From Acaryochloris thomasi RCC1774 (GTDB taxonomy: Bacteria > Cyanobacteriota > Cyanobacteriia > Thermosynechococcales > Thermosynechococcaceae): a stretch of 32,000 nt of DNA. The notes under the pieces were generated by a model that was not told where the DNA came from, did no database searches, and saw only the letters and a program-made list of their open reading frames with translations. The stretch covers positions 1-32,000 of the forward strand of contig NZ_PQWO01000017.1 of assembly GCF_003231495.1 (NCBI RefSeq), given 5' to 3'. Positions 1,236-29,646 of this stretch are shown one piece after another; within the stretch, counting starts at the first letter, position 1; the number at the start of each line of letters is the position of its first letter. Made by a program: the position numbers and the translations under genes.

Positions 1236-2072
1236 TTAAGAACTTCTTGACAGCCTAGGGTAAATCATAGCGCCCAAAAAGAGTCCCAGTTGAGCCATCA
1301 CAATGCTCGGCCCTGACGGTAAATTCATGGTCGCCGATAGTCCCATCCCCACCACAGCACTGATGGCCCCTAAGCTTGCTGATAGCACTACATGGTGGCT
1401 AAACCGCCGAGATAATAACTGGGATGCACAGGCTGGAATCACCACAAAGGCACTAATCAGCAGGACTCCAATGGCCTTAATGGCAATCCCCACGACCAAG
1501 GCCAGCAGCACAATAAAAGTGGTGCGATGGAATGAGACCGAAACGCCCCTTGCGATCGCAAATGGCTCATGCAACGTGATCAGCATTTGAGTCCGCAATG
1601 TGAGGCCAATAAATAAGGTGCAGGCTAGCAGTAAAACAGCGCTGAAGATCAAATCCGATTCTCGGACGGCCAAGATATCGCCAAACAGAAGCTGATGGAG
1701 CCCGCCTTTATAGGTGTCGGTGAAGCTGAGGACAATGACTGCGATCGCTAACGATGATGAATAGATAATGTTGAGCAACGCATCAGTCCATAGCTGGGTG
1801 CGCTCTAGTAGGTAAGTCACGCCCAGGGCAAACACCACCGCGAAGGGCAGCAAAACCGCCGTGGGGTTCCAGCCCAGAAGGACGGCAAAACTGAGGCCCA
1901 GCAGCGCAGAGTGCCCCAGAGCATCACTAAAGAAAGAGAGCTGACGCAGAATCGTAAAGCTCCCCAACATTCCACCCGCCAGCCCAGTAAGGACGCCGCT
2001 CAATACTGCCCGCTGCATAAACGGGAGCTGAAAGAGATCGGCAATTCGGACTATTTCACTAGCAAATGACAT
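1236..2072 (-). CDS. znuB: Zinc ABC transporter permease (ABC-3 family, ZnuB-like)
   Basis: Polytopic hydrophobic protein (MSFASEIVRIADLFQLPFMQRAVLSGVLTGLAGGMLGSF...) typical of ZnuB/TroC permeases. It is the last gene of the hemB-znuA-znuC-znuB string. I place the start at the ATG at 2072 (M35 of the track ORF) because the longer ORF would overlap znuC. Confidence 0.85.
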   Translation of the reverse strand: MSFASEIVRIADLFQLPFMQRAVLSGVLTGLAGGMLGSFTILRQLSFFSDALGHSALLGLSFAVLLGWNPTAVLLPFAVVFALGVTYLLERTQLWTDALLNIIYSSSLAIAVIVLSFTDTYKGGLHQLLFGDILAVRESDLIFSAVLLLACTLFIGLTLRTQMLITLHEPFAIARGVSVSFHRTTFIVLLALVVGIAIKAIGVLLISAFVVIPACASQLLSRRFSHHVVLSASLGAISAVVGMGLSATMNLPSGPSIVMAQLGLFLGAMIYPRLSRSS

Positions 2073-2106: not shown

Positions 2107-2892
2107 TTAATGCAATGTAGAGTCTGACATACAGGAATGATGGTACCGGGCGAACTCTGGCCCATATACGGCACTTAAGCTGTCGCGAGAGAGGGCAACA
2201 TCCGGCATTCCCTCACAGCGGAGGGTGCGATTCAGACACAGCACATGATCACACTGACGCTGCACCATATTGAGATCGTGAGAAACCTGCATAATGGCCC
2301 ATCCCTGCGTCTGCTTGAGCTGCTCCAGTAGCTGATAGAACTCTGCTTCGCCCCGCACATCTAAGCCTGCTGGCGCTTCATCTAAAACCAGCAGGCGGCG
2401 GGGCCGCACCAAGCAATAGGCCAGTAAAACACGCTTGGTTTCTCCCCCCGAAAGGCTGCTTACCCGTTTGTTTCTTAAGTGCAGGGCTTCGACTTGAGCC
2501 AGCGCTTGACGAACGGCCACCTGCCGTTCCCGCCGCCCTGCCCAAGGCCACTGGAAGCCCAGCGCGTGCCAGCCTAATCCCACCATTTCATCCACCGTCA
2601 TCGGAATGCGGCGATCGAAGATAAAGTTCTGAGGCAGGTAGGCGATCTGCTCTCGCACCCGGGCAGGCAGTACCCCTTTGGGACTGAGGCGATGGCCCAG
2701 TATTTCCACTTCACCACTGTGACAAGGCAGAATGCCCAACATTGCCTGAATCAATGTGCTTTTACCGGCCCCATTGGGACCGACAATCGCAACATTCGTC
2801 CCGGCCTGCACCGAAAATGAGACCTGTTCGACGGCAATATGGGTGTTGCGGGCCACCGTCAAGCCCGAGACCCGCACAATGAAATCTTGCAA
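2107..2892 (-). CDS. znuC: Zinc ABC transporter ATP-binding protein (ZnuC-like)
   Basis: Walker A GPNGAGKST, ABC signature LSGGETKR and Walker B LLVLDEA are present. The track ORF (to 2991) overlaps znuA. A TTG at 2892, preceded by AGGAGA, gives MQDFIVRVSGLTV and starts just after the znuA stop. The start codon remains uncertain. Confidence 0.85.
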   Translation of the reverse strand: MQDFIVRVSGLTVARNTHIAVEQVSFSVQAGTNVAIVGPNGAGKSTLIQAMLGILPCHSGEVEILGHRLSPKGVLPARVREQIAYLPQNFIFDRRIPMTVDEMVGLGWHALGFQWPWAGRRERQVAVRQALAQVEALHLRNKRVSSLSGGETKRVLLAYCLVRPRRLLVLDEAPAGLDVRGEAEFYQLLEQLKQTQGWAIMQVSHDLNMVQRQCDHVLCLNRTLRCEGMPDVALSRDSLSAVYGPEFARYHHSCMSDSTLH

Positions 2893-2902
2893 GCTGAATC
2901 TC

Positions 2903-4066
2903 CTAGAAATTGACCTGCACAAACTGAGGCAAGGTAGCAACAGTCCGCTGCCGGGATGGAGCCGGAACCCAAGACTGGGCTTGACCGCCAAAGGCCGCTG
3001 TTAAGTTTTTGAGATTCTCTCGCATCGCTGTTAAATAGTAGTCTGCTTCCAATGCCTCTGGACCACCAGATTCCAACGGATCAAAGGTGCCCACTTTCAC
3101 ATTGAGATCCTTCGCTAGGGCTTCGAAGGGGCTACCCGTGGCCTGGGGTTCTGATAGTAGCGTATTCAGGTTAGAGTCTTTGGCTGCCTTTAAAACCCGC
3201 TGCACGTCTTCTGGTTTGGCATTTTCTGCCGGGATGCCTACTAGGTACTCTACTTTCAAGCCGTAGCTGCCCGCAAAGTAGTCAGCAAAATCATGATAGG
3301 TGACGAAGGTTTTCCCGGCATAGGGCTTAAGCTGCTCGGTAAACTCAGCATCAAGATTTTTCAGCTCTTCGATATAGGCCGTCGCGTTGGCTTCATAGGT
3401 GGACTGGCCCTCGGGGTCAGCGGCTATCAATCCATCCCGAATATTCTCGACCTGCTGGATTACCCGTTTGGGATCAAGCCAGATGTGGGGATTGTTTTCG
3501 CCGTGGTCGTGTTCGGCGTGCTCCTCACCTTCAGCATGTTCTTCGTCTTCGGCATGCTCCTCACCTTCAGCGTGTTCTTCGCCTTCAGCATGTTCTTCGC
3601 CGTGGTCGTGTTTGCCTTCAGCGTGTTCTTCGCCTTTATGCTCCTCTTCTTCATTGGGGATTACGGTAATGCCTTGGCTCGAATCAATCACGGCTAGCTT
3701 GTCATTGCCCGCGTTTTTGACCATGTCTTCTAGAAATGCCTCCATCTCTAGGCCGTTTTCTATTAGCACATCGGCGGTGGTCAGCTTCTGTACATCTGCG
3801 GGTTTAGCTTGAAAGTCATGGGGGCCAACATTGTTGGGTAAAAGCTGGGTGACTTGGGCGCGATCGCCCGCTACTGCTTTCGTAAAATTCGTAATCGGTA
3901 CAAAGGTGGTCATTACCTGCAGCTTCTCGCCCCCTTGCGCCGCATTTGATTCTCCCGAAGGCGTCGAAGCACAACTGCCTAAGCCCACAGCCAGAGCTGA
4001 GATAAAGGCTACAGAGAGTCGAGCCGTAGATTGAGACTGATGAAAGAGAAAATGACTAAATTTCAT
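2903..4066 (-). CDS. znuA: Periplasmic zinc-binding lipoprotein of ABC transporter (ZnuA, cluster-9/TroA-like) with a long His/Glu-rich loop
   Basis: Signal peptide plus lipobox (ALAVGLGSCAS) and a TroA-like fold sequence (VMTTFVPITNFTKAV...NPHIWLDP...TYHDFADYF). A His/Glu-rich loop spans aa 139-194. Genetic linkage to znuC/znuB and the Zur box at 5142 support the call. Confidence 0.9.
   Translation of the reverse strand: MKFSHFLFHQSQSTARLSVAFISALAVGLGSCASTPSGESNAAQGGEKLQVMTTFVPITNFTKAVAGDRAQVTQLLPNNVGPHDFQAKPADVQKLTTADVLIENGLEMEAFLEDMVKNAGNDKLAVIDSSQGITVIPNEEEEHKGEEHAEGKHDHGEEHAEGEEHAEGEEHAEDEEHAEGEEHAEHDHGENNPHIWLDPKRVIQQVENIRDGLIAADPEGQSTYEANATAYIEELKNLDAEFTEQLKPYAGKTFVTYHDFADYFAGSYGLKVEYLVGIPAENAKPEDVQRVLKAAKDSNLNTLLSEPQATGSPFEALAKDLNVKVGTFDPLESGGPEALEADYYLTAMRENLKNLTAAFGGQAQSWVPAPSRQRTVATLPQFVQVNF
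3485..3652 (-). repeat. In-frame tandem 18-bp repeats (gaagaacatgctgaaggc = EEHAEG) building the ZnuA His-rich loop
   Basis: Protein reads EEEHKGEEHAEGKHDHGEEHAEGEEHAEGEEHAEDEEHAEGEEHAEHDHGENNPH. The DNA shows about six near-identical 18-bp units. These units also create the spurious antisense ORFs at 3293-3812. Confidence 0.9.
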
Positions 4067-4106: not shown

Positions 4107-5219
<1,113 letters not shown>

Positions 5220-6219: not shown

Positions 6220-6666
6220 TTAGGCATCGTTACCAAAATATTTAACCATAGGAACTGAGCTATCTAGGTTTGGATCTCCTGCCACCTTATATCCAAGCCG
6301 GGCGTAGAAAGGTAGGGCATTCGGGCTAGCGTCTAGGTTTACTGTAATTTCTCCTTGTGCCCGGATTGCGGACTCTGCATATGCCATAAGTAACGAGCCA
6401 ACACCTGAGTGAGAAGCAGAGGGAGTCACGTAGAGTCCTTTGATTGTTGCGGCCTTGACCTCGATCCAACCCACAACAACCGATTCGCACTCTGCCACCC
6501 AGACACTGTTGTGCTTGATCGCTAATGCAGCGCGATCGGAACTGGCAGAGTTTGCCCAGCGCTCGGCTGCAGCGTGTCCGAAATCATCGGCAAGACTCAT
6601 AATGGCATGCCAACGTATCGCAAGAAGCCTCTGATCATCGCTGGAGATAGCAGACCGAATGTGCAT
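6220..6666 (-). CDS. GNAT-family N-acetyltransferase
   Basis: Acetyl-CoA motif region VTPSASHSGVGSLLMAYAESAIRAQG and C-terminal FYARLGYKV. The track ORF extends to 6747, but those 27 codons lie inside the dispersed repeat, so I prefer the ATG at 6666 (MHIRSAISS). Confidence 0.75.
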   Translation of the reverse strand: MHIRSAISSDDQRLLAIRWHAIMSLADDFGHAAAERWANSASSDRAALAIKHNSVWVAECESVVVGWIEVKAATIKGLYVTPSASHSGVGSLLMAYAESAIRAQGEITVNLDASPNALPFYARLGYKVAGDPNLDSSVPMVKYFGNDA

Positions 6667-6688
6667 TAGAGGGACGTAGAAGCTGTCT

Positions 6689-6921
6689 AAACTATAACTA
6701 TACGGATAGCGGCTGATAACTCCGGTAGGAAGGGTATTATCCGCCAAAAACTAGATAACTCCGCGATCAGAGCATTATCAAGCAGAAGTCGGATAACTCC
6801 GACCCAAGAGGTACTATCCAGTCGTTTACTGTCATCAAGCCACCCTATTTGGAAATCTTGAGATTAATAAGCCCCGCCCTTCAAAGCTTTCAAGACTCCC
6901 TATCCCTATGCTCGTCAGCTC
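6689..6921 (-). repeat. Dispersed repeat family, copy A (longest): three tandem ~38-bp GATAACTCCG-N-TATTATCC hairpin units plus a ~100-bp tail with promoter-like hexamers
   Basis: Positions 6689-6747 align with 11411-11476 and 27147-27209 (core ACGGATAGCGGCTGATAACTCCG). Positions 6789-6921 align at roughly 80% by eye with 27176-27312. Sub-units lie at 6713-6745, 6751-6783 and 6788-6822. The copy ends about 22 nt upstream of the GNAT ATG. Confidence 0.8.
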
Positions 6922-6970: not shown

Positions 6971-8074
6971 TTAATTTGCCTCCCCGAGATAGCAGTGACA
7001 ATCTGGCTTCTCAATCAACGAAGCCGCCAGCCGATTAAGTACCACTGCCGCCAGCAGGCCACCGCCCAGGGCGCTTTCAGTAGTCACGTAGGGCACCGAT
7101 AACTGCATCAACCGACGCTTGGCCGCTGGCGCATGACTAAACCCAATGGGCAGACCAATGACTAAGGCAGGCCGACCCACTCCCGTCTCGATGGCTTCGC
7201 AAAGTTTCATCAAGACTGATGGCGCGTAACCCACCATCCAGATATTGCCGTCTGTCAAATCCCGCAACCGCTGGTGCCAGCCGTTATCCTGCCAGAACTG
7301 CTGTTCCGCATCGGCGGCACTGTCTATATGGGGATTGTCCAGCAGCGTGGCCCATTGACAGCCTAAATGGGTAAGACGGGGTTGGTCTAGGGCCGCAATC
7401 ACGGCAGGAACGTCCCCCACTATGGTGCAGCCTGCAGATAGAGTCTCACGGGCTGCCTTGATGGCATCGGAACTAAAGCGCACGAAAGTCGCTAGGCTTA
7501 CATCGCCGCAGGCTAACACCAGGTGAGAGAGTACGTCCACTTCAATCTCAGGACGCTGCGAAAGATCGGGCAGCAAGCGAAAGAGAGCCTCCTGGAAGTG
7601 CTCAGGATGATCTGGGACAGCGGCATCGAGCTGCTGCCAAAGATCTTCGGTAAAGGCCGTCGCGGTCTCTGTTTCAGCCGCCAACTGCCGCAACTGTGCC
7701 AGGGCTTCAGCTTGGACAGACTGGCAAGCTTGGTCGCGTCCAATAAATCCCTCTAGAGCCGTAGCAGTCTGCCGGAGCTTGATCATCTGCTGCAAAACGG
7801 TTTGATACTGCTTCTGGAGCTGGTCCAATAAGGGGTCCACCGCCATCGGCTGGGACTGAGCGACTAGCATTTGCTGGATGTGGGAGAGCTGAAACCCCTG
7901 TTGTTTAAGGGCCACAATTCGCTGGAGGCGCTGTATATCGGCTGCGCTGTAGAGGCGATAGTTGCTGTGCGATCGCATCGGCTGGGGCAGCAGTCCAATC
8001 TGGTGATAGTGCCTCACCATCCGGGGGGTCGTGCCGTGACCAACGGATTGCGTCAGTTCTTTAATAGTCAACAT
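6971..8074 (-). CDS. coaR: MerR-family cobalt-responsive regulator fused to a precorrin-8X methylmutase (CbiC/CobH)-like domain, CoaR-like
   Basis: N-terminal MerR HTH (MLTIKELTQSVGHGTTPRMVRHYHQIGLL...YRLYSAADIQRLQRIVALKQQGF). The C-terminal half is CbiC-like (GYAPSVLMKLCEAIE...LVIGLPIGFSHAPAAKRRL...GGGLLAAVVLNRL). The tail has a Cys-His-Cys (KPDCHCY) like the Synechocystis CoaR sensor motif. Start placed at the ATG at 8074; the longer ORF would cross the divergent promoter. Confidence 0.85.
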   Translation of the reverse strand: MLTIKELTQSVGHGTTPRMVRHYHQIGLLPQPMRSHSNYRLYSAADIQRLQRIVALKQQGFQLSHIQQMLVAQSQPMAVDPLLDQLQKQYQTVLQQMIKLRQTATALEGFIGRDQACQSVQAEALAQLRQLAAETETATAFTEDLWQQLDAAVPDHPEHFQEALFRLLPDLSQRPEIEVDVLSHLVLACGDVSLATFVRFSSDAIKAARETLSAGCTIVGDVPAVIAALDQPRLTHLGCQWATLLDNPHIDSAADAEQQFWQDNGWHQRLRDLTDGNIWMVGYAPSVLMKLCEAIETGVGRPALVIGLPIGFSHAPAAKRRLMQLSVPYVTTESALGGGLLAAVVLNRLAASLIEKPDCHCYLGEAN

Positions 8075-8078
8075 ACCC

Positions 8079-8110
8079 TTGACCTTAACATCAATGTCAA
8101 GGTTTACCCT
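8079..8110 (+). promoter_or_regulatory. MerR-type operator-promoter of coaT: TTGACC -35, 20-bp spacer with a dyad, TACCCT -10
   Basis: The sequence is cTTGACCTTAACATCAATGTCAAGGTTTACCCT. The dyad ACCTTnACAT-nn-ATGTnAAGGT occupies 8082-8103. The over-long spacer (8085-8104) is the hallmark of MerR-activated promoters, and the layout resembles the CueR/ZntR boxes of E. coli copA/zntA. Confidence 0.75.
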
Positions 8111-8140
8111 GAGGAAGCTGTTAATGCTAAGGCTGCCCTG

Positions 8141-10111
8141 ATGGAGAATGTGACACAACTGAGGTTTCCACAACAGGGCCGGATTCCATCTTGGTTTAAA
8201 ACCTATCCTGCCGTCGCAACGGCTGCGCTGTGTGCCCTGCTAACGCTGCTGGGCTGGTTGGCGTTAGTGGCCGGGCAGGTGGGCGGGGCCGTCTGGATCT
8301 TGTTGATTGCCTACGGCATTGGGGGTTATGAAAGCGCTCGTGAAGGGTTAACGACCCTGTGGCAAGAACGGGAATTAGATGTCGATCTATTGATGATTGT
8401 GGCGGCTCTGGGGGCGGCCACCTTGGGGCTATGGCAGCGGGAGTATTATTTGCTGGTGGATGGGGCAATTTTGATCTTAATCTTTGCCATCAGCGGAGCC
8501 TTAGAAGATATTGCCCTCCAGCGCACCGAGCGCAATATTCGGAGCCTGATGCAGCTCACTCCAGATACCGCTTGGCGGTGGCAAGGCGGTCAAACGCAGC
8601 GGATCAAAACGCAGCAGTTGCAGGTGGGCGATCGCATCCTGATCAAACCGGGCGAACTCATTCCCACGGACGGTGTGGTCCAGACTGGCAGCAGTACGGT
8701 GAATCAGGCGACGTTAACCGGCGAGTCGATTCCAGTGGAGAAAGGCATTGGGGATGAAGTCTTCGGGGGCACCCTCAACGGCAGTGGAGCGATCACGGTC
8801 GAGCTGCACCAGCCCCCAGAGAGCAGCCTGATTCAGCGAGTGATCCGCTTAGTGGAGCAGGCCAAAACCTCGCAGCCGCGATCTCAATTATTTTTAGAAA
8901 AATTCGAGCGGGGCTATGCCCGCCTGATTGTCGGCGTCGGGTTGCTCCTGGCAATAATGCCGCCCCTCTTGCTGGCCTGGAGTTGGGAAACCACTATCTA
9001 CCGAGCCTTGATTTTTCTGGTGGTGGCCTCCCCCTGCGCCCTAATGGCGGCGATTATGCCCACCTTACTCTCTGGGATTGCTCAGGGGGCACGACAGGGG
9101 ATTCTATTTAAAGATGGTGCTCAGTTGGAAACGATGGGGCGAATTGAGGCGATCGCCTTCGATAAAACCGGCACCCTAACCACGGGCGTTCTGCAGGTCA
9201 GCGATCTAGTGCCTGCTGCAGGCGTCGCCGCGAATCATGTGCTACAGGTGGCGGCTTCCCTAGAGGCTTATTCCGAGCATCCCATTGCGGATGCGATTGT
9301 GGCTGAGGCCCAACAGCAGGGACTGTCGCTTTTGTCAGCCAATGCTGTTCAAGCTGCGATAGGTCAGGGCATTGTCGGTCATCTAGCCGGAACCCTAACC
9401 CGGATCGGTAAACCTCAGTTTGTCACGGCAGATCTGTCCGAAACGGCAGACTCTCATCTGCTTCAGGCCAGCCATCAGCTAGAAGCCACCGGCAAAACCG
9501 TGATCTGGGTCACGGAGCAGCAGCACTTGATCGGACTTTTGGCCGTCGCCGATCAGATACGTCCCCAAGCCGCTCAAGTCTTAGCTATCCTCAAGCAACT
9601 GGGAATTGCGACGGTGATTCTGACGGGGGATAATGCCGCCACCGCTCAGACCCTTGCCCAACTTGTGGCGGTAGAAGCCGTCTACGCCGATTTACTACCG
9701 GAGGACAAAGTAGATGCCATTGAAAAACTCCAGCAGCAGTACGGCACCGTGGCGATGGTGGGGGATGGCATTAACGATGCTCCGGCTCTGGCTCAAGCCT
9801 CGGTGGGCATTGCGATGGGGACGACGGGCAGTGATGTAGCTTTAGAGACGGCGGATGTGGTGTTGATGGGCGATCGTTTAGAGAAACTCACGCAGGCGAT
9901 TGGTATTGGAGCCAAGTCTCAACGGATTGTCAAACAGAATATTGCTCTAGCGCTGACCTCTATTGCCCTGTTGATGGTAGCTAACTTCTTTGGTGAACTG
10001 ACCTTGCCTGCTGGGGTGCTGGGGCACGAGGGGGCAACGTTGTTGGTAACGCTCAATGGCTTGCGATTACTGAGAACCGATGCCGCTATCGCCTCTATAT
10101 CTTACTTGTAG
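8141..10111 (+). CDS. coaT: P1B-4-type heavy-metal (cobalt) exporting ATPase, CoaT-like
   Basis: SPC motif in a TM helix (LVVASPCALMAA), DKTGTLT phosphorylation site, GDGINDAPAL, and HEGATLLVTLNGLRLL in the last TM helix. No N-terminal HMA domain. Start placed at the ATG at 8141 (MENVTQL), downstream of the MerR-type promoter; the track ORF start at 7871 is inside coaR. Confidence 0.85.
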   Translation: MENVTQLRFPQQGRIPSWFKTYPAVATAALCALLTLLGWLALVAGQVGGAVWILLIAYGIGGYESAREGLTTLWQERELDVDLLMIVAALGAATLGLWQREYYLLVDGAILILIFAISGALEDIALQRTERNIRSLMQLTPDTAWRWQGGQTQRIKTQQLQVGDRILIKPGELIPTDGVVQTGSSTVNQATLTGESIPVEKGIGDEVFGGTLNGSGAITVELHQPPESSLIQRVIRLVEQAKTSQPRSQLFLEKFERGYARLIVGVGLLLAIMPPLLLAWSWETTIYRALIFLVVASPCALMAAIMPTLLSGIAQGARQGILFKDGAQLETMGRIEAIAFDKTGTLTTGVLQVSDLVPAAGVAANHVLQVAASLEAYSEHPIADAIVAEAQQQGLSLLSANAVQAAIGQGIVGHLAGTLTRIGKPQFVTADLSETADSHLLQASHQLEATGKTVIWVTEQQHLIGLLAVADQIRPQAAQVLAILKQLGIATVILTGDNAATAQTLAQLVAVEAVYADLLPEDKVDAIEKLQQQYGTVAMVGDGINDAPALAQASVGIAMGTTGSDVALETADVVLMGDRLEKLTQAIGIGAKSQRIVKQNIALALTSIALLMVANFFGELTLPAGVLGHEGATLLVTLNGLRLLRTDAAIASISYL

Positions 10112-10260
10112 GGCTGAAGTTGCGATCGCAACTCAACAGTGACTTGCTGCGAACGTCAGGATTGGCCTCTCGGGAGCATCGGGTTCTTGCCCTTTTGTCT
10201 GACAATGCCTCACGAGATATAGCATTTGGTTCATGTGCTATATCTGACAACTTTAACTTT

Positions 10261-10306
10261 CAGAGATAGCACCACATCGACTGCCACAACGCAGAACAAA
10301 GACTTA
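10261..10306. repeat. 46-bp dispersed repeat, copy 1 (CAGAGATAGCACCACATCGACTGCCACAACGCAGAACAAAGACTTA)
   Basis: Matches 25554-25599 at about 39 of 46 positions, including an identical 17-mer ACATCGACTGCCACAAC. Both copies lie shortly downstream of the last gene of a plus-strand unit. Confidence 0.7.
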
Positions 10307-10419: not shown

Positions 10420-11061
10420 TCACGATACCCTGCGAAAAATATATAGAGGAGCTGTTTTAGTATAGCCAACCCCTCGACCTAATCCATGTAGAGATTCTCG
10501 AGTGATGGAAGTTTTGCCTTTTGGAACAAAATAAGCCTCTAAAGCAGAATATGAAATGCGGTATTTACCTTTATCTCTATGTACGGTAGCTATGAGCTTA
10601 TAGTCTTTATCAAGTGCCGCTAGACCTGCGTCAGCATGACTATTGTTCACCAACAGTAATCCGTCTATGTTGAGATAAGCTTTGCAAGCCTCTGAAATAA
10701 AACCCGCATACTGAGAGATTAGTAAATCACAAGAATCTATAAGCTCGCTATGTATCTTACTGTAGTCCGCGCCGTAAAACGTGACACTGGGTGCCTCTTT
10801 GTATTGTTTGCGGTGCTGGATGAGTGCCTGTACTTGTTCTTCTTGAAAGAATAGTTTGGCATTCTTATCTGAATCAATATAGGTAACAGTTTGAAAGACA
10901 AAAGAAGGTGAAACATGGACGAAGCTTCCAGGATAAATTACGCTACTGATTCCAAACTCACTTTTTAGTAGTTGAAACAAATCTAATTGCTCGTAATCCC
11001 TGTCAATATAGTATTTTTGATAGGTTTGAAGAGCATCTTTTGCTCGACTCATAATAGACAC
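10420..11061 (-). CDS. Hypothetical protein in a visibly AT-rich segment (possibly methyltransferase-like fold; function not supported)
   Basis: Uninterrupted 213-codon ORF with no competing ORF. Its composition differs from the neighbours and it contains no HIP1 site. I recognise no diagnostic motif. Confidence 0.5.
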   Translation of the reverse strand: MSIMSRAKDALQTYQKYYIDRDYEQLDLFQLLKSEFGISSVIYPGSFVHVSPSFVFQTVTYIDSDKNAKLFFQEEQVQALIQHRKQYKEAPSVTFYGADYSKIHSELIDSCDLLISQYAGFISEACKAYLNIDGLLLVNNSHADAGLAALDKDYKLIATVHRDKGKYRISYSALEAYFVPKGKTSITRESLHGLGRGVGYTKTAPLYIFRRVS

Positions 11062-11153: not shown

Positions 11154-11381
11154 TTATCCGCCGTCTTTGGTCATCATGTTGGCAAACCGACGGGTTAGTT
11201 CGTCAGTGATCAGATGGTCGCGTTTGGTCATGATTAACCAAGTGTGGCCAGACAGATCAGTTAGTGTTCCCCGTCGGTCGCCATCAAATTGGTCCGTCGG
11301 TGGCGATACCGATGTCGCGCCAGCAGTCAGCCCGGTAGCGAAAGTAGCGTCGTCAGCGATCAGATATGGGGTTGCCGTCAT
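11154..11381 (-). pseudogene. Short VOC/glyoxalase (PhnB-like) remnant
   Basis: The 75-aa ORF keeps an N-terminal TPYLI and a C-terminal FDGDRRGTLTDLSGHTWLIMT, reminiscent of VOC-family proteins. It is about half the usual length, suggesting internal deletion. It is preceded by repeat copy B. Confidence 0.35.
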
Positions 11382-11410: not shown

Positions 11411-11476
11411 AGTCGGATAACTATAATTATACGAATAGCGGCTGATAACTCTGGTAAGAAGGGTATTCTCCGCCAG
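11411..11476 (-). repeat. Dispersed repeat family, copy B (short)
   Basis: AGTCGGATAACTATAATTATACGAATAGCGGCTGATAACTCTGGTAAGAAGGGTATTCTCCGCCAG aligns with 6689-6747 and 27147-27209. On the minus strand it contains a perfect TATAAT. It lies 30 nt upstream of the ATG at 11381. Confidence 0.75.
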
Positions 11477-14733: not shown

Positions 14734-14815
14734 ACTGAAACGCTATGGGTGATCGCTAGCGAGATTATCCACCCGGAATGGATTGAACCGTTTGTACAAA
14801 ATCCTATACTTAAAA

Positions 14816-14832
14816 ATGATAATCATTCTCAT
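14816..14832. promoter_or_regulatory. Zur box (ATGATAATCATTCTCAT) upstream of the DUF1636-flavoprotein-FeoB-like operon
   Basis: Same palindrome family as 5142, 21396 and 27691. It lies 83 nt upstream of the ATG at 14733. Confidence 0.7.
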
Positions 14833-15148
14833 TGTCTTTAGCCACCCGACTTTCTTGCTCTCACAACCTGATAGCAGATGCGCCTCTGAGTTTGAATAGC
14901 GAGGAGGGTGCACAGTTTTTGTTGCGGATGCGAGGGGCTGAGATTTGCGATCGCACTTAGCTTGGCTCTGCTGCTGAGCGATTTGCTAAGACAGATATTA
15001 CGGCCTATCCGTTGATGGGAGAGGTGTTGGCGTAGTATCTGGATCAGATTGTGAATGTCACTTTGCCATGCGATGCAGGTAGTGTGCGAAATGGCCCGTT
15101 AGTTTTTGAATGCTAGGATCAGGCTAGCTCCTAAGTGCGAAAGATCTC

Positions 15149-15376
15149 ATGCTAACTTTGAATCAGCTTATTTCAGAGGCGACTGCCTTACCCGATACAG
15201 ACAAAGCAGTCCTCATAGACAAAGTTGTGGAAAGCATGGAAGAGCGAGTTGACCGGGACGTTTTGAGCCAGGGAATCCAGACAGCTCAAGACCGCATCGC
15301 TGAGATTGAGAGCGGTGCAGTCCAAGCTATTCCCGGAGATATTGCTTTAGCACAGGTTCGGCAACGCTTAGGGTAA
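15149..15376 (+). CDS. Type II antitoxin (putative addiction module component family)
   Basis: A 75-aa acidic protein (MLTLNQLISEATALPDTDKAVLIDKVVESM...IESG). Its TAA stop overlaps the ATG of the downstream toxin by 1 nt (TAATG). Confidence 0.7.
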   Translation: MLTLNQLISEATALPDTDKAVLIDKVVESMEERVDRDVLSQGIQTAQDRIAEIESGAVQAIPGDIALAQVRQRLG

Positions 15377-15666
15377 TGAAATATGAATTCCACCCAGCAG
15401 CCCTGCAAGAATATGCAGAGGCTGTAGAGTTTTTTGCCCAAAAAGACCGGCATCAGGATTTCATCGACATCATAGAAAGTTCAATATTTCGGGTTATTTC
15501 AGCACCAGAACGCTGGCCGGTTGTTCAAGGTGAGATTCGTCGTTATTTGACCCCCAAGTTTTCCTATGCCATCTTGTATCGAGTCTTTTCAGATAGAGTC
15601 GTAATTGCCGCAGTCATGAGTTGTCGTAGAGATCCCAATTATTGGCAAGATCGTTTGGAATCGTAA
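15376..15666 (+). CDS. Type II toxin, RelE/ParE superfamily
   Basis: A 96-aa protein (MKYEFHPAALQEYAEAVEFF...RRYLTPKFSYAILYRV...VVIAAVMSCRRDPNYW), which is the typical ParE/RelE plasmid-stabilisation pattern. It is translationally coupled to the upstream antitoxin. Confidence 0.75.
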   Translation: MKYEFHPAALQEYAEAVEFFAQKDRHQDFIDIIESSIFRVISAPERWPVVQGEIRRYLTPKFSYAILYRVFSDRVVIAAVMSCRRDPNYWQDRLES

Positions 15667-15967
15667 AGACCACCTCACTTGCTCCACGGTTCCCCCTGTA
15701 CACATCGTCCCCGCTTAATAAAAGCCAGAATTGCCCGCACAGTCACCTAACGTTCCACGCCAAGTAAACCTGATGCCTAAGAAAGGCCGTTTATTTGAAA
15801 CACAGTGAACCACAGAATGATAACCTTAGGGCCAGATTTATACGACTTCTGATTGATAATGCCCTTATCTCGGAGTCATCCGATTCTTGGCAGATAATAT
15901 CCTTCCAACCGGATTTATCAACCACCATCCATATAATCGTAGTTAGAGCTTCAATTGGAGAGCAGGA

Positions 15968-17221
15968 ATGGGCCGATATACCAAAGTCGACCTAGCATAC
16001 GAATTCTTGGTGGCCAAGGAGAAGCAAGACGAATCCTTTACTGTTCAACAACTATCCGAAGCAACCGGGTGGGCTGTCGTAACATGCAAAAATTATTTAT
16101 CAAAGCGTTGGCATCAGTATTTAGAAAGGGATGGAGATCAGTATTCAAGCGAAGCTATATTATTTCTAAGCAAAGAAGATTTTCAGGCTCTTCATTCTCA
16201 AAAGCTTCAACAAACTACCGACCTTTCCACGAGGGGAATGCTGATTCATAAAGCAAGGGAATTCGCCTTGCTTGCTGTCTCCGTATACAACAATCCATTC
16301 ACTAAATTCAAAACGTATGGGTTCATTGTAAATATTGTCGTCGCCTATGTTGCATTGTTTCATGCGATATTCGAGAAACGGGGAATCTGTTGCTCGCATC
16401 TTGATGCAGGCGGACATCCAGTACTTATTGACGGAGACGAGAAAGTCTGGGAGTTATCAGAGTGTGTACGTGAATATTGGAAAGGAGTAACAAGCCCAGT
16501 CGCAGCTAACCTACGCTTCCTAACTGGGCTTAGGAACAAAATTGAACACCGGAGTCTACCAGCTATTGACCTTGCGGTCGCTGGGGAGTGTCAGGCTGCA
16601 CTGGCGAACTTCGAAGATCTCCTCGTACAAGAGTTTGGTGATGAACACGCTCTGATAGCAGATCTGGCGATTGCCATGCAGCTTAGTAGAATTTCTGAGC
16701 AGGCACAGATTGACACACTAAAGCAGCTACAGAAGGAGAACTACAGAGTAGTTAAGGAGTACATGGAAACGTACCGGAACGATCTCGACGATGAGGTTGT
16801 CCAGAGTCAGAAATACCGTATTCGAGCATTCCTCGTTCCAAAACTTGGAAATCATGCAACAAGCAGCGATATTGCTATCGAATTTATCAACGTCAACGAA
16901 TTGTCTGAAGACGAACTTGCTAACTATGAACAAGGGGTGGCCTTCATAAAGGGAATTGAAAATCCCTACAAGCTTAGACCGACCAAAGTTATTGAACTTG
17001 TAAGGGAAAAAAGAGCGAGCTTCAATATGACCATGCACACGAAGTCTTGGAAGTACTATAAAGCTCGACCTCGTGAGCTGCAAAAGGGCTTTCGAGGGAA
17101 ATACTGTAGCTTTATCGAGGGATTCGATGGCTATCTCTATTCCAAGCACTGGGTGAACTTTCTTGTCAGTGAACTCGCGTCAGAAGAAACGATGACTTCA
17201 ATCAAAGCACAGGCTATTTAG
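15968..17221 (+). CDS. HEPN-motif protein (DUF3644/Abi-like), candidate defence or toxin RNase
   Basis: Exact RNxxxH motif RNKIEH at aa 189-194 (nt 16532-16549). It follows a helical segment LLAVSVYNNPFTKFKTYGFIVNIVVAYVALFHAIFEKRG that resembles DUF3644-type HEPN families. The gene is AT-richer, contains no HIP1, and is flanked by two TA pairs. Confidence 0.6.
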   Translation: MGRYTKVDLAYEFLVAKEKQDESFTVQQLSEATGWAVVTCKNYLSKRWHQYLERDGDQYSSEAILFLSKEDFQALHSQKLQQTTDLSTRGMLIHKAREFALLAVSVYNNPFTKFKTYGFIVNIVVAYVALFHAIFEKRGICCSHLDAGGHPVLIDGDEKVWELSECVREYWKGVTSPVAANLRFLTGLRNKIEHRSLPAIDLAVAGECQAALANFEDLLVQEFGDEHALIADLAIAMQLSRISEQAQIDTLKQLQKENYRVVKEYMETYRNDLDDEVVQSQKYRIRAFLVPKLGNHATSSDIAIEFINVNELSEDELANYEQGVAFIKGIENPYKLRPTKVIELVREKRASFNMTMHTKSWKYYKARPRELQKGFRGKYCSFIEGFDGYLYSKHWVNFLVSELASEETMTSIKAQAI

Positions 17222-17522
17222 AGATAAAGATGGTGTCTAGAACAACCGCAAAGAAATCAGTCCACATTGGATACTCACGAGATCGAGCGCAGGCCAGCTC
17301 TAATAAGCGGTTGCAGCAGACGAAAATTCCGCTATGTGAAATTTTTGCGTCTGTACCAAAACGTTAGATATCAGCCATCCAAAAACTCAATTAAGTGACC
17401 AAGTGTTGTGGTTGATGTCGGCGGAAAACGCGATCGCTATCTTGAACAAGTTGCTTACGACAACATGCATAACGACGGATCGATAGCATAGATAAAACTC
17501 TTGGTCAAAGCTGTGCAGATTG

Positions 17523-17840
17523 CTAGCACTTCGCAACAGAAATCTTTTCAGGAGTCAATCGATATCCCAGGGCATTGAGAATAGCATTCACACTTTCAAA
17601 TTTTGGACTTCCCTCGATTGATAGCGCTTTTTGCAATCCTTTCCGTGACATCCCCGCAGCCGCAGCAGTTGCGGTGATCCCCTTTGCTCGGGCGATGGTT
17701 CGTAGAGACGCAAGCAAAGCTCCGATATCACCATCTTGAGCATAGTCTTCAAAGAGAATAGAGAGATATTCATCTATTTCTTCAGGATGTTGCTGGAAAT
17801 ATTCAGCTTCTAGCTGATCAAGGGTTCTCAGTTGTCGCAT
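17523..17840 (-). CDS. HigA-type antitoxin (addiction module antidote protein, HTH)
   Basis: LRTIARAKGITATAAAAGMSRKGLQKALSIEGSPKFESVNAILNALGYRL is the typical HTH pattern of antidote proteins encoded downstream of killer proteins. It overlaps the upstream toxin ORF by 23 nt. Confidence 0.75.
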   Translation of the reverse strand: MRQLRTLDQLEAEYFQQHPEEIDEYLSILFEDYAQDGDIGALLASLRTIARAKGITATAAAAGMSRKGLQKALSIEGSPKFESVNAILNALGYRLTPEKISVAKC

Positions 17841-18201
17841 TGGTTAAATACTCCTTCCAGTAAGCTTGAGCCGTTTTAACATCAAGATTCTGAGTACTTT
17901 TGTCGCCGCCACAAAGCAAAATGACGAGCGTTGGGCCATTTTCGCCAAAGTAAACTCGATATCCAGGCCCGAAGAATAGTCTGAGTTCATAGACTCCACC
18001 CCCTAAAGCTTTGCAATCACCATAGTTACCTTGTTCGAGACGACGTAGACGACTCAAGATCCGCTTGCGACCCACCGTATCCCGAAGACTTGTAAGCCAT
18101 TGGCTGAAAGGCTCTTGACCTAATGCGTCTGCATAGACAAGGATCTGTTTCGGTAGTGAGGAGTTGGACAAGCTTCTATCAGAGTGCGTACCACAGTACA
18201 C
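17818..18201 (-). CDS. HigB/RelE-like toxin (addiction module killer protein family)
   Basis: FSQWLTSLRD...RILSRLRRLEQGNYGDCKALGGGVYELRLFFGPGYRVYFGENGPTLVILLCGGDKSTQNLDV is the characteristic killer-protein pattern. The toxin-first gene order is as in higBA. The true start may be downstream of the listed ATG. Confidence 0.75.
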   Translation of the reverse strand: MYCGTHSDRSLSNSSLPKQILVYADALGQEPFSQWLTSLRDTVGRKRILSRLRRLEQGNYGDCKALGGGVYELRLFFGPGYRVYFGENGPTLVILLCGGDKSTQNLDVKTAQAYWKEYLTNATTENP

Positions 18202-18282
18202 TACTAAATCTTATCGAATGTAAATCCTGTATTGGTGAGATCGCACTCAACCTCATTCTTCTGCTGACGGGCTGGCTGTTGT

Positions 18283-18924
18283 TCAAGACCTAGCGGCCCT
18301 ATGGCCTTCGTGCAGTGTAGCAATACAGGCAGAATCATCTGCACAGTGATAGCCCGCCAATAAGGCTCGATTGACTTCCACTACGTGATGAGAAAACTGA
18401 TGATCGACGGTCTTGGCATCGGGTAGCCGATCAGCGTCAGCTTGATGGATAATGACAGCCCCTGATCCGACATATTTCCCGGTTGGGATCTCCACGTCTT
18501 GGATCAGCGCATGCATCATCACAACACAATGATCACCCACCTTGGCATTAAACACTGTTGATCGAAAGCCAATGAAGCAGTCATTACCAATATAGGCAGG
18601 TCCGTGAATCAAGGCCATGTGGGTAATGCAGGTATTTTCGCCAATCCAGACCGAATAGGGCTGATGATCATCGCCTCTGACCCGCCCCTGTTCTAAGCCA
18701 TGAATAACCACACCATCCTGGATATTGGTGTTCGCACCGATATAAAAGGGCATGCCCTCGTCTGCTCGAATGGAAGTGCCGGGTGCAATCAATACCTGTT
18801 GACCCAAGCGAACATCTCCGATCAAACTTGACGAGGGATGCACGTAAGCTGACGGATCCATTTGGGGTTGGTCTAGCCCTCGATCCCAAGGTGTCGGGGG
18901 CGAAGGCTGCTGGCGTAGGGGCAT
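18283..18924 (-). CDS. Stand-alone gamma-class carbonic anhydrase-like protein (left-handed beta-helix), resembling the N-terminal domain of CcmM
   Basis: Hexapeptide-repeat sequence with candidate metal-ligand histidines (VVIHG at H75; THMALIHG at H102/H107). The C-terminal helix carries Cys194 and Cys200 ([10 protein letters not shown]). No RbcS-like repeats follow. It is the last gene of the thrS-hisI string. Confidence 0.75.
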
Positions 18925-21356: not shown

Positions 21357-21395
21357 AGAGGGATTAGAGATAACGGCAATGGGTTGCCCATGAAT

Positions 21396-21412
21396 ATGAT
21401 AATGATTATCAT
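21396..21412. promoter_or_regulatory. Zur box (ATGATAATGATTATCAT) in the divergent thrS / folE intergenic region
   Basis: The best palindrome of the five. It lies 40 nt from the thrS ATG (21356) and 88 nt from the folE ATG (21500), so it is positioned to control both divergent operons. Confidence 0.8.
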
Positions 21413-21499
21413 TATACTTGCCAGTCTCCAGTTTGCTTCTGTATTGAAATCGACTGGACTTCGGAGTTCCCTATATCCCTTTCTACGTTAGGAGTTTGT

Positions 21500-25496: not shown

Positions 25497-25553
25497 GAGC
25501 GTCATGAGAGATGACACTCGGTGCAGGTGCGATCGCTTATTGCTTTAAACGCT

Positions 25554-25599
25554 CAGAGATGACACTACATCGACTGCCACAACCCAGAACAGAGACTCA
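25554..25599. repeat. 46-bp dispersed repeat, copy 2 (CAGAGATGACACTACATCGACTGCCACAACCCAGAACAGAGACTCA)
   Basis: Aligns with 10261-10306. A partial extra copy of the first 12 nt (AGAGATGACACT) lies at 25507-25518. Confidence 0.7.
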
Positions 25600-25713: not shown

Positions 25714-26343
25714 TCATGGATTACGCTTGAGTATCCAAAATGGCGGAGCATCAGTTGTAAGTTGTTGCTTACGCGCGATTTCAAACCCATTTTTCTGGTA
25801 AAACCGCACGGCTAACTCTGTCGCCGTGACGACAGAACAAGGAAGCCCCTCATCACTTGCTCGACACAAAATAGGCCGTAGTAATTGAGTCCCTATCCCT
25901 TGTCCTTGACTCTCTGGTTGCACAACCATCAGCCCTAAATCCCAATAGGGAGAATTGCCCATATCTTGTTGCTGAACTCTTTCGATTGCAGACAACATAT
26001 TTAGCCATCGTGCCAATCGATTCCAACCTACCTTCACTGGCAACTTATACAACTGAACCTGAAGCGCCATCTTTAATTGTTGGAGTAGATTGGTAGAGAA
26101 TTCTCCTGATGGCGGCAACCAAGCCGCTACTCCTTGAAAGTCTGATGTCGTGTAGACATGCCCATATTGAATGCAGTAAACCATTAATTGACTTGTCAGC
26201 CAACTTAAAGCCTGAAATCGCAGTTCTGGATCATCCGGTGTTAAGTAGCTAAATACCGGATCAGCGATCAATGCATTCGCGGCAATTTCACTGGCATTCT
26301 CAATCTGCGATGAATGTAACTGGAGCACATCAGAACGATGCAT
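25714..26343 (-). CDS. GNAT-family N-acetyltransferase
   Basis: QPESQGQGIGTQLLRPILCRASDEGLPC...AVRFYQKNGFE is the typical acetyl-CoA binding motif A/B region. Confidence 0.75.
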   Translation of the reverse strand: MHRSDVLQLHSSQIENASEIAANALIADPVFSYLTPDDPELRFQALSWLTSQLMVYCIQYGHVYTTSDFQGVAAWLPPSGEFSTNLLQQLKMALQVQLYKLPVKVGWNRLARWLNMLSAIERVQQQDMGNSPYWDLGLMVVQPESQGQGIGTQLLRPILCRASDEGLPCSVVTATELAVRFYQKNGFEIARKQQLTTDAPPFWILKRNP

Positions 26344-26653: not shown

Positions 26654-27139
26654 TTATACGTCGGTCTGAGTTGTGATTCGAGTGATTTGTCGACCAAGAA
26701 CTTTGCGGTTCGCGTGAATTTTCACGGGCAGGTCAGTGTTATAAGAATACAGTTCGTCGATGACGCCAGCCATGTGTTTTTTCGTCTCGACATCCTTTGA
26801 TTGAAGTGTTGATGCTATGGCACGATCGTATTCTTGTCGAAGCGATTTCATTTTACGATCGTCATGTCTACACGTAGGACAGTTTTTTGCATATGAATCG
26901 ACGTAGAAACCGAGTTGTTCGTACCATCGTTTTTGCTCAGCGGCGGTGAAGCAAAACTTCTCGGAGCAGCGAGAACATTTGAATGTGGCATCGACATACC
27001 AATGGCGTGGGCACACCGAGTAGTTTTGGCGAGACACATCAGCACGTACTGCAGAATCGTGATTGAGGTGCAAGCATTCCCAGAAGAAATGTCGGGGCAT
27101 GTTTACCGAACTGGTTTCGCCAAAGGAGTCCATGTGCAT
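26654..27139 (-). CDS. Zinc-ribbon domain protein (zf-trcl-like, four-Cys)
   Basis: CPRHWYVDATFKCSRCSEKFCFTAAEQKRWYEQLGFYVDSYAKNCPTCRH contains two Cys pairs flanking the conserved F-F-EQ-Y-GF pattern. The segment is AT-richer. Repeat copy C starts 8 nt upstream of the ATG. Confidence 0.65.
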   Translation of the reverse strand: MHMDSFGETSSVNMPRHFFWECLHLNHDSAVRADVSRQNYSVCPRHWYVDATFKCSRCSEKFCFTAAEQKRWYEQLGFYVDSYAKNCPTCRHDDRKMKSLRQEYDRAIASTLQSKDVETKKHMAGVIDELYSYNTDLPVKIHANRKVLGRQITRITTQTDV

Positions 27140-27146
27140 CCTTGAG

Positions 27147-27312
27147 GCGGATAACTACTAAATTCTACGGATAGCGGCTGATAACTCCGACTCTGAGGGC
27201 ATTATCCAGTAGTTTACTGCCATCAAGCCACCCCGTTTGGGAATCTTAAGATTGATATGCCTTTCCCCGTAAAGCTTTCAAGAATCCCTGTCCCTATCCA
27301 ACTTGTCAGCTC
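27147..27312 (-). repeat. Dispersed repeat family, copy C (one hairpin unit plus full tail)
   Basis: GGCGGATAACTACTAAATTCTACGGATAGCGGCTGATAACTCCG...GGGCATTATCCAG, followed by a tail aligning with 6822-6921. On the minus strand the tail carries TTGAAA-N17/18-TATCAA and the gene-proximal end carries TAGAAT. Confidence 0.8.
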
Positions 27313-27678
27313 TCTTTGACCACATCCGCGCAAACTTTCGCCATAAGGACTAGAGATCCAAGAGCGCAAAGCTCTGCCTATAGGGTATTGGCAGCTTTCC
27401 TGTCAATTAAGTCATGAGTCCATCTCTCGAACTCGAAGTTCAGACCATTCATGAGCACCCATTGCATCGGAAACCACTGTGTTTGACGCTCGAACGATCG
27501 CACCTCTCACCGATTGCGATCGCACAACCACTCCCAGATTTTATGAACAGGCTAGGGTTTGAAGCCTTATTCTCCTAAATAGACTGTGCTGAGAAACCAT
27601 CTTGGCGATTCTTAAGACTGGGAACCGCTATCTCACAGGCTCCTCACCCTGAATTAAGTTTCAACACAATGCCGCCTC

Positions 27679-27707
27679 TTGATATAGTGAATGATAATCA
27701 TTATCAT
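27679..27707 (+). promoter_or_regulatory. Promoter (TTGATA-N17-TATCAT) overlapped by a Zur box (ATGATAATCATTATCAT, 27691-27707) upstream of sufE-like/COG0523
   Basis: The -35-like TTGATA is at 27679-27684, followed by a 17-nt spacer and a -10-like TATCAT at 27702-27707. The palindrome covers the spacer and the -10, which is the classical repressor geometry. It lies 30 nt upstream of the ATG at 27737. Confidence 0.8.
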
Positions 27708-27736
27708 TTTAACGATACACCTGCACTCCAGGCGCT

Positions 27737-29575: not shown

Positions 29576-29646
29576 AGGTGGCACCCAGATTCGAACTGGG
29601 GATAAAGGCTTTGCAGGCCCCTGCCTTACCACTTGGCTATGCCACC
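29576..29646 (-). tRNA. tRNA-Cys (anticodon GCA)
   Basis: The minus strand reads GGTGGCATAGCCAAGTGGTAAGGCAGGGGCCTGCAAAGCCTTTATCCCCAGTTCGAATCTGGGTGCCACCT. It folds as a cloverleaf with a 7-bp acceptor stem, anticodon loop CTGCAAA, T-loop TTCGAAT, an A13-A22 mismatch and discriminator U, as in known tRNA-Cys. CCA is not encoded. Confidence 0.9.

Follow-up and report, generated by a model that had tools for sequence, protein, structure and literature searches.

The first 32,000 nt of contig NZ_PQWO01000017.1 of Acaryochloris thomasi RCC1774 (hereafter the window) contain a family of short intergenic repeats that stand in front of unrelated accessory genes, and this family is the subject of the present analysis. 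The window is cyanobacterial, with many HIP1 sites (GCGATCGC), and the nearest relatives of its proteins come from metagenome-assembled genomes (MAGs) labelled Thermosynechococcaceae or Leptolyngbyaceae. Its core genes encode ZnuABC, alternative HemB, FolE, ThrRS, HisI, a gamma carbonic anhydrase, two COG0523 GTPases, and SufE. The palindrome AATGATAATCATTATCATT, which we take to be a Zur box, occurs five times (1143-1165, 5141-5163, 14815-14837, 21393-21413, and 27690-27712), upstream of the znuA side, hemB, DUF1636, folE/thrS, and sufE-COG0523. The window is probably a zinc-limitation island of paralogous, probably zinc-independent, enzymes, and accessory genes are scattered among its core genes.

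The original prediction listed three copies of the repeat in one orientation. These copies (A, B, and C in Table 1) are real and far above chance, as self-BLAST of the window aligned A with C at 79% identity over 133 nt (E = 9e-26), A with B at 91% over 57 nt (E = 5e-16), and B with C at 85% over 47 nt. The count of three, however, was too low, since a fourth copy, D, inverted relative to the others and absent from that list, matches A at 76% over 143 nt (E = 1e-23). Searching the window with a profile of the copies turned up none beyond these four. The shared core and the GATAA/TTATC dyad described earlier are both present, and the unit said to be triplicated in copy A with a period of ~38 bp is found at 6714, 6753, and 6791, with spacings of 39 and 38 nt. 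Calculated from the coordinates of the original prediction, the distance from copy to ATG is 22 (A), 29 (B), and 7 nt (C).

Fifteen relative loci, reached through the ThrRS, CoaT, and FeoB-like neighbours, were examined for the same element. It is present in four of them, representing three distinct copies (in L002, L006, and L014; the locus L007 is near-identical to L006), which brings the number of distinct copies to seven. The element is absent from the more distant relatives among the fetched loci, and thus the family is narrow. No sequence relative was detected in any library searched. In particular, an exact-pattern scan of the viral collection gave no match, and neither did blastn in distant mode against plasmids and phages. 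One exact-pattern match in the genome collection, in an Acidimicrobiales MAG, is weak by nhmmer (E = 0.0013), and two others from metagenomes are AT-rich; all three were treated as chance. Each of the exact-pattern scans (genome, metagenome, and viral) would miss diverged relatives.

All seven copies face a downstream open reading frame (ORF), and in six of them its start codon lies ~14-57 nt past the terminal ...TAGTTA. Copy D is inverted and also precedes a plus-strand gene, so that with respect to the next gene all four window copies point the same way. Pfam confirmed the GNAT and the zinc ribbon that had been assigned downstream of A and C, whereas the "VOC remnant" after copy B has no Pfam match even at E<=10 and shows weak matches to glyoxalase-fold structures in the PDB (E = 0.3-0.6). 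The description of these genes as AT-richer is correct for the zinc ribbon (47% G+C), the DUF3644 gene (44%), and the 213-aa ORF that follows the first cargo gene of B (39%), but not for the GNAT (51%) and the 75-aa ORF (54%), the window average being 51%.

Table 1. Copies of the repeat, parts of copy A, and genes downstream of the window copies (window coordinates, except for the copies in relative loci)
Feature	Position	Strand	Description
Copy A	6685..6921	-	Full length: tail, three units, -10 region, end ...TAGTTTA; nhmmer 6681-6910, E = 6e-73
Copy B	11411..11476	-	5'-truncated: unit 1 (11438-11474), TATAAT (11426-11431), end TAGTTATCCGAC
Copy C	27147..27312	-	Tail (27210-27312), one hybrid unit (27174-27209), TAGAAT (27162-27167), end TAGTTATCCGCC
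Copy D	15802..15948	+	Three units at ~15815-15847, 15853-15882, and 15889-15926; TATAAT (15932-15937); end TAGTTAGA; no tail
L002 copy	1741-1970		In front of a TIR gene
L006 copy	3492-3626		In front of an AT-rich 154-aa ORF
L014 copy	2822-2886		In front of a BrnT/BrnA pair
Tail hairpin of copy A	6851..6900	-	Predicted outer stem GGGAGUCUUGA / UCAAGAUUUCC plus inner stem; -20.6 kcal/mol, z = -2.67
Unit 3 of copy A	6788..6822	-	Palindrome GGATAGTACC...GGAGTTATCC
Unit 2 of copy A	6751..6782	-	Palindromic unit
Unit 1 of copy A	6709..6745	-	GGCGGATAAT-N-GTTATCAGCCGC; right arm TTATCA forms a -35-like hexamer
-10-like hexamers of copy A	6691..6702	-	Two overlapping hexamers, TATAGT TATAGT, at the gene-proximal edge
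Cargo of A	6220..6666	-	GNAT acetyltransferase; Pfam Acetyltransf_10, E = 1e-14
Cargo of B	11154..11381	-	75-aa ORF, possibly a VOC-fold remnant; then a 213-aa ORF at 10420-11061
Cargo of C	26654..27139	-	Treble-clef zinc-ribbon protein (zf_Tbcl, Pfam); then a second GNAT at 25714-26343
Cargo of D	15968..17221	+	DUF3644 protein; Pfam E = 8e-48; PADLOC candidate defence family PDC-S19, E = 3.7e-98

Read on the gene strand, the element consists of an optional tail of ~100 nt, one to three units of 38/39 bp, the segment CCGCYATCCG-TATAAT-TGTAG, and a terminal TTA. The tail is present in A, C, and L002 and absent from B, D, L006, and L014. Three units are found in A, D, and L002, approximately two and a half in L006, and one in B, C, and L014. 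Every unit contains a 27-bp imperfect palindrome, GATAAYNCC-N7-GGNRTTATC, and in this register 85.6% of the cells pair (13 units), compared to at most 52% in shifted registers. A register with 12-bp arms, suggested by a perfect palindrome in L006, was abandoned in favour of the 27-bp one, as only 56% of its cells pair, not above shuffles. The single unit of copy C has a left half resembling unit 3 and a right half resembling unit 1, as expected from an unequal crossover between units. The Tandem Repeats Finder program reported no tandem repeat for the units of copy A, because these are too diverged.

Conservation within the unit is uneven. Pairwise identity reaches 0.87 and 0.82 in the two arms of the palindrome and falls to 0.49 in its spacer and to ~0.43 in the linkers between units, and the GGAG adjoining the right arm is invariant. 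Compensatory double changes are absent from the palindromes of all 13 units, and the shuffle control was not exceeded. Well-kept arms in combination with zero compensatory changes form a signature of conserved sequence, for example a protein-binding site, rather than of structure-constrained RNA. As a separate observation, the unit arms TGATAAT and GTTATCA (e.g. window positions 6714-6720, 6775-6781, and 15853-15859) match or nearly match the half-sites of the Zur-like boxes.

The original prediction also invoked a structured 5' leader, and folding and covariation analysis did not bear it out. The units precede the -10 box, folding of the whole element is unremarkable compared to shuffles (z = -1.67 on the gene strand and +0.39 on the opposite strand), the unit helix shows no compensatory change, and Rfam contains no match at the gathering threshold or at E<=5. 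A two-stem hairpin architecture is predicted in the tails of A, C, and L002, where only the hairpin of A exceeds shuffles (z is ~0 in C and -1.0 in L002) and one compensatory pair was seen among the three sequences. This hairpin is no more than possible; one role for it might be that of an insulator or terminator on the upstream side. A small ORF that begins inside the tail (ATGRCAGTAAAC...) was discarded, being found in A and C but not in L002 or D.

At the gene-proximal edge each copy carries a -10-like hexamer. The hexamers named earlier for A (TATAGT), B (TATAAT), and C (TAGAAT) are all in place; TATAAT is also found in D, L002, and L006, and TACAAT in L014. Positions T1, A2, A4, and T6 of the hexamer are invariant in all seven copies, and both these positions and the palindrome arms are selectively conserved. 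A scan with a consensus promoter reported TTATCA-17-TATAGT on the gene strand in A and B. Transcriptome maps of cyanobacteria revealed a -10 element, a preference for A at +1, and no -35 consensus (PMC3219970), from which the expected start would be the A or G at ...TAGTT-A-G. The homology between copies ends approximately at this predicted start. The second promoter that had been proposed in the distal tail, TTGAAA-N17/18-TAT(C/T)AA, fared less well: the motif is there, but it ends in A rather than T and thus lacks the key T at -7, and it was not picked up by the scan. Moreover, a 9-nt duplication disrupts the motif in L002, and the four tailless copies do not have it.

The 3' boundary of the element is sharp. 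When the seven copies are anchored at the right on TAGTTA, their similarity drops to the background level (0.25) within 2-3 nt; B and C share ~11 more bases, TCCGMCTSAAG. The same edge separates conserved from unrelated DNA at orthologous loci. L014 belongs to a close strain, whose FeoB-like protein is 94% identical to that of the window, and the two loci stay above 90% identity along the end of the FeoB-like gene and the repeat as far as TTATAGTTA, beyond which they are unrelated; copy B and its L014 ortholog also have an identical 5'-truncation point. Similarly, L002 and L006 share an upstream COG0523 pseudogene fragment and the repeat, their homology stops at TAGTTAGA, beyond which the genes differ. 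Orthology also links the L006 locus to that of copy C (between COG0523/SufE and the 245-aa gene), where the cargo is again not the same. In this respect the recombination scar, or cassette junction, of the original prediction was partly right: at two orthologous or related pairs of loci the repeat is kept and the DNA after ...TAGTTA is unrelated, although attC-like sites, a recombinase gene, and a copy at the far end of the cargo were not found in the window.

Other relatives show the state without the repeat. In L016 and L017 the Zur box, SufE, and COG0523 come directly after the FeoB-like gene, the repeat being absent, and copy D is located within a 3.3-kb insertion (window 14954-18231) absent from L016. 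The repeat thus travels with, or edges, variable accessory DNA. In L004 and L007 the gamma carbonic anhydrase-like gene and DUF1636 are adjacent, and no genes were called between them. The insertion itself contains a ParE-type toxin-antitoxin pair, copy D with PDC-S19, and a Gp49/HI1420 toxin-antitoxin pair. Its flanks (window 14900-15010 and 18180-18290) carry an imperfect direct repeat of ~30 bp that includes a HIP1 site (GATCGCACTYARC...CTGCTGA), and the empty site in L016 (6020-6160) has two HIP1 sites.

The FeoB-like gene (window 11502) and the Zur box-SufE-COG0523 group (27690) lie 16 kb apart and are mutually inverted, whereas they are adjacent in L016 (11516-11713) and L017 (8609-8849). 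Copies B and C are located at the two sides of this break, indicating a large rearrangement in the lineage. A truncation of FeoB by copy B was also considered and dropped, as the window protein and the FeoB of L013 are distant paralogs and their comparison is uninformative. A different repeat family, "E", with two direct GAGATGACAC-like motifs and copies 76-86% identical (window 10207-10304 and 25499-25597; L002 1255-1400), occurs just past the stop codons of the CoaT-like ATPase and the 245-aa gene, that is, at the far end of cargoes B and C. The L002 copy has become joined to the final bases of a deleted 245-aa gene and to a COG0523 fragment. We rejected "E" as the right-hand end of a mobile cassette: its second copy forms the original 3' flank of the 245-aa gene, the L002 copy lies on the upstream side of the element, and cargoes A and D lack it.

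Several further features of the neighbourhood were recorded. In L006, a MITE-like insertion (miniature inverted-repeat transposable element; 3349-3501, ~135 bp) lies just upstream of the repeat, beside the deletion that took the tail of the latter. The terminal inverted repeats of this insertion measure 37 nt and are 81% complementary, and its target duplication, GTTGAGGGGC, is 10 bp long. The 93-aa ORF upstream of the L002 copy was ruled out as a divergent regulator, being a COG0523 pseudogene fragment. A 54-aa ORF on the plus strand (window 27414-27578), with no Pfam match, is situated on the upstream side of copy C, ~100 nt from its tail, and points away from that tail. A divergent gene pair encodes a MerR-CbiC fusion regulator (6971-8173, minus strand) and a heavy-metal P-type ATPase (8153-10111, plus strand); we take it to resemble the CoaR/CoaT cobalt efflux system of Synechocystis. 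Within the znuA-like gene an 18-nt tandem repeat (3512-3661) encodes a His/Glu-rich loop (EEHAEG), and a tRNA-Cys gene (GCA; 29576-29646, minus strand) comes right after the second COG0523 gene.

Our preferred reading, held tentatively and somewhat short of probable, is that the repeat represents a portable promoter which carries operator-like sites, is confined to one lineage, and owes its spread and reshuffling to recombination, and that its 3' edge is the junction at which cargo is turned over. From the sequence we infer initiation of transcription at this edge, binding of a protein to the units, and the mode of spread. RNA polymerase would use the -10 box, the -35 box being presumably dispensable in cyanobacteria, and transcription from the last one or two bases of the repeat would leave each downstream gene its own short leader. 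The palindromes could be operator sites for a dimeric DNA-binding protein co-regulating the dispersed genes, the nearest of them overlapping the -35 position. The copies would have been spread and reshuffled by recombination with each other, not by classical cut-and-paste transposition; the variable number of units, the hybrid unit of C, and the truncated copies argue for such recombination, which in turn would make the 3' edge of the repeat the point of cargo exchange. For example, an inversion between inverted copies would swap the DNA beyond their promoter ends.

Among the explanations offered by the original prediction, the promoter half of its mobile-promoter reading appears to be the best supported, in view of the -10 box, the polarity of all seven copies, and the end of homology near the predicted start, while its leader half is not supported. 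The shared regulator-binding array proposed there is compatible with the contrast between arms and spacers, but no regulator has been identified.

A number of observations weigh against the preferred promoter-operator reading. The neighbourhood encodes no candidate regulator. The consensus promoter scan reported no gene-strand promoter in C, D, and L002, and the TATAAT hexamer stands without a recognisable -35 partner. On the opposite strand each unit resembles a promoter, TTGATA-16-TATTAT, with 10 of 12 consensus positions in D and 9 of 12 in A and L002, and hence the conservation of the arms could reflect -35 and -10 hexamers facing the other way. In L014 the BrnT/BrnA pair has a palindromic operator-like sequence of its own just upstream and thus seems to possess its own promoter/operator, so that the repeat need not drive it. 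Finally, the sample consists of seven copies only, all in or beside one genomic island, and its ascertainment is biased.

A selfish or neutral BOX- or MITE-like modular repeat with no regulatory role, whose placement reflects tolerated insertion and a small biased sample, would agree with the modular build, the variable number of units, and the truncated or tailless copies. It would fit the location in highly rearranged DNA and the confinement to one small lineage, with no relative in the genome, metagenome, viral, plasmid, and phage collections. Nevertheless, the ends of the element do not behave like those of a MITE. In A, C, and L002 the best complementarity between the two ends does not exceed that of shuffles, and a target-site duplication is absent from C and L002, with a 4-nt chance match in A, whereas the MITE-like insertion in L006 has both features. 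The units are arranged head-to-tail rather than in the inverted pairs of repetitive extragenic palindromes (REP/REPIN), and the scanned ORFs of the window contain no Y1-transposase (RAYT-type) domain. Gene-facing polarity in seven of seven copies and selective maintenance of the arms and critical -10 positions while spacers drift disfavour a purely selfish repeat, which we regard as unlikely.

The shared breakpoint could alternatively mark a site-specific landing pad, an attI-like site with its own promoter, at which a recombinase encoded elsewhere binds the GGAGTTAT sites and exchanges modules after ...TAG|TTA. In agreement with this, the breakpoint is common to all seven copies, including the pairs B/L014 and L002/L006, the copies are found at synteny breaks or in insertions absent from relatives (L016 and L017; D in the 3.3-kb insertion), and the cargo is of the kind usual in cassettes (toxin-antitoxin pairs, TIR, PDC-S19, GNAT). 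The edge of copy B, CGTATAA-TTATAG-TTATCCG, is a 7-6-7 inverted repeat similar to a tyrosine-recombinase core. The consensus GTTRRRY fits two of the seven junctions, those of L006 (GTTAGAT) and L014 (GTTAGGT), but not GTTAGAG (D and L002), GTTTAGA (A), or GTTATCC (B and C). Further, the scanned ORFs of the window showed no integrase, recombinase, or transposase domain, although such a gene may be located elsewhere in the genome; the whole window contains on either strand no attC-like pair (R'' RYYYAAC and R' GTTRRRY at 35-150 nt); and the cargo is not flanked by a second copy or core repeat. Ordinary homologous recombination between dispersed copies would yield an equally sharp break, its trace being the hybrid unit of C, and thus could explain the shared breakpoint without a dedicated enzyme. 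We consider the landing pad rather improbable. Less probable still is its extension to a cyanobacterial gene-capture platform, in which an unlinked recombinase would use the GGAGTTAT sites together with a terminal CGTATAA-N6-TTAxxxx core for precise insertion of defence and toxin-antitoxin genes at ...TAG|TTA; newcomers would then be expressed at once, as in a Pc-attI-like arrangement, but without attC and at dispersed single sites.

It is very unlikely that the units are tandem promoters of the opposite strand serving divergent or antisense transcripts, or weak Zur/Fur-type sites. The promoter-like matches in D, A, and L002 and the arms equal or nearly equal to the half-sites of the five AATGATAATCATTATCATT boxes agree with these two possibilities, respectively. 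However, B and C have no opposite-strand match, and there is no consistent target on the tail side, where the transcripts would be antisense to CoaR, the FeoB-like gene, or ParE, sense to SufE, or directed into pseudogene fragments. The half-sites in the units are 13-15 nt apart, not 1 nt as in the 7-1-7 box (TGATAAT-N-ATTATCA), and both possibilities leave the invariant GGAG beside the right arm unexplained.

The least probable account is a structured RNA: a transcript beginning in the tail would serve as a small RNA or as a cis-regulatory 5' leader, and the unit hairpins would function at the RNA level. The tail hairpin architecture common to A, C, and L002 (with several G-U pairs workable only on the gene strand) and the hairpin possible in each unit are offset by folding and unit-helix statistics no better than in shuffles, a tail "promoter" without the -7 T and broken in L002, the tailless B, D, L006, and L014, and the blank Rfam search.

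If the portable-promoter reading is true, acquired genes (TIR, PDC-S19, GNATs, and toxin-antitoxin pairs) are preceded by a reused ready-made promoter/operator module, which would provide a concrete, dissectable case of how horizontally acquired genes become expressed and co-regulated. The breakpoint shared even by orthologous loci makes the choice between homologous exchange and site-specific capture testable, and a second testable question is whether the palindromes link the scattered accessory genes into one regulon.

Among known systems, the three tandem imperfect palindromes adjoining and overlapping a promoter are reminiscent of the lambda operators OR1-OR3 at PR/PRM. However, the palindromes of the repeat are 27 bp long with a period of 38/39 bp, compared to 17 bp and ~24 bp in lambda, there is no adjacent repressor gene, and the element is present in multiple copies before unrelated genes. 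A type III toxin-antitoxin system (ToxI/ToxN) does not match either, as the downstream GNAT, zf_Tbcl, DUF3644, and TIR proteins are not ToxN-like, B and C have one unit each, and the -10 box is located between the units and the gene. The similarity to integrons (Pc and attI, with GTTA-containing IntI-binding sites and the crossover point G|TTRRRY) includes a promoter before a fixed point, unrelated and often toxin-antitoxin or defence-type genes after it, and repeated GTTAT-containing sites ahead of the ...GTTAG junction; here, in contrast, neither intI nor attC was found in the window, there is no co-oriented cassette array, and the copies are dispersed singly.

The layout, with one to three units, is modular in the manner of BOX elements (PMC10969869). 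Like BOX of Streptococcus pneumoniae (boxA-boxB(n)-boxC) and the promoter-bearing Correia elements of Neisseria, the repeat is a small modular intergenic element with internal modules of ~40-45 bp in variable number, situated near gene starts and potentially able to affect expression of the neighbouring gene. It differs from them in belonging to another phylum, in having no sequence relation to them, in ends that are not complementary and lack terminal inverted repeats and target-site duplications, in a copy number that is so far much lower, and in the strict gene-facing polarity of every copy.

The closest parallel is provided by the putative mobile promoters of Matus-Garcia, Nijveen and van Passel (2012), a documented phenomenon in prokaryotes (PMC3575422). 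Common to both are highly similar non-coding sequences upstream of non-homologous genes in one genome, the lack of a link to a known mobile element, and a suspected rewiring of expression. Identity of at least 80% over at least 50 nt upstream of non-homologous genes is reached strictly by the A/B pair only, the other pairs being just under this level. Putative mobile promoters are defined by similarity alone, and their mode of movement is unknown, whereas here a tail, palindromic units, and a -10 box can be resolved, and the 3' boundary coincides with the predicted start site, where cargo turnover is seen at orthologous loci. Surveys of such promoters left open the question of how acquired genes come to be expressed, on which this family would bear. 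Judged by sequence likeness, the element would belong with the putative mobile promoters and would combine their placement with a BOX-like layout.

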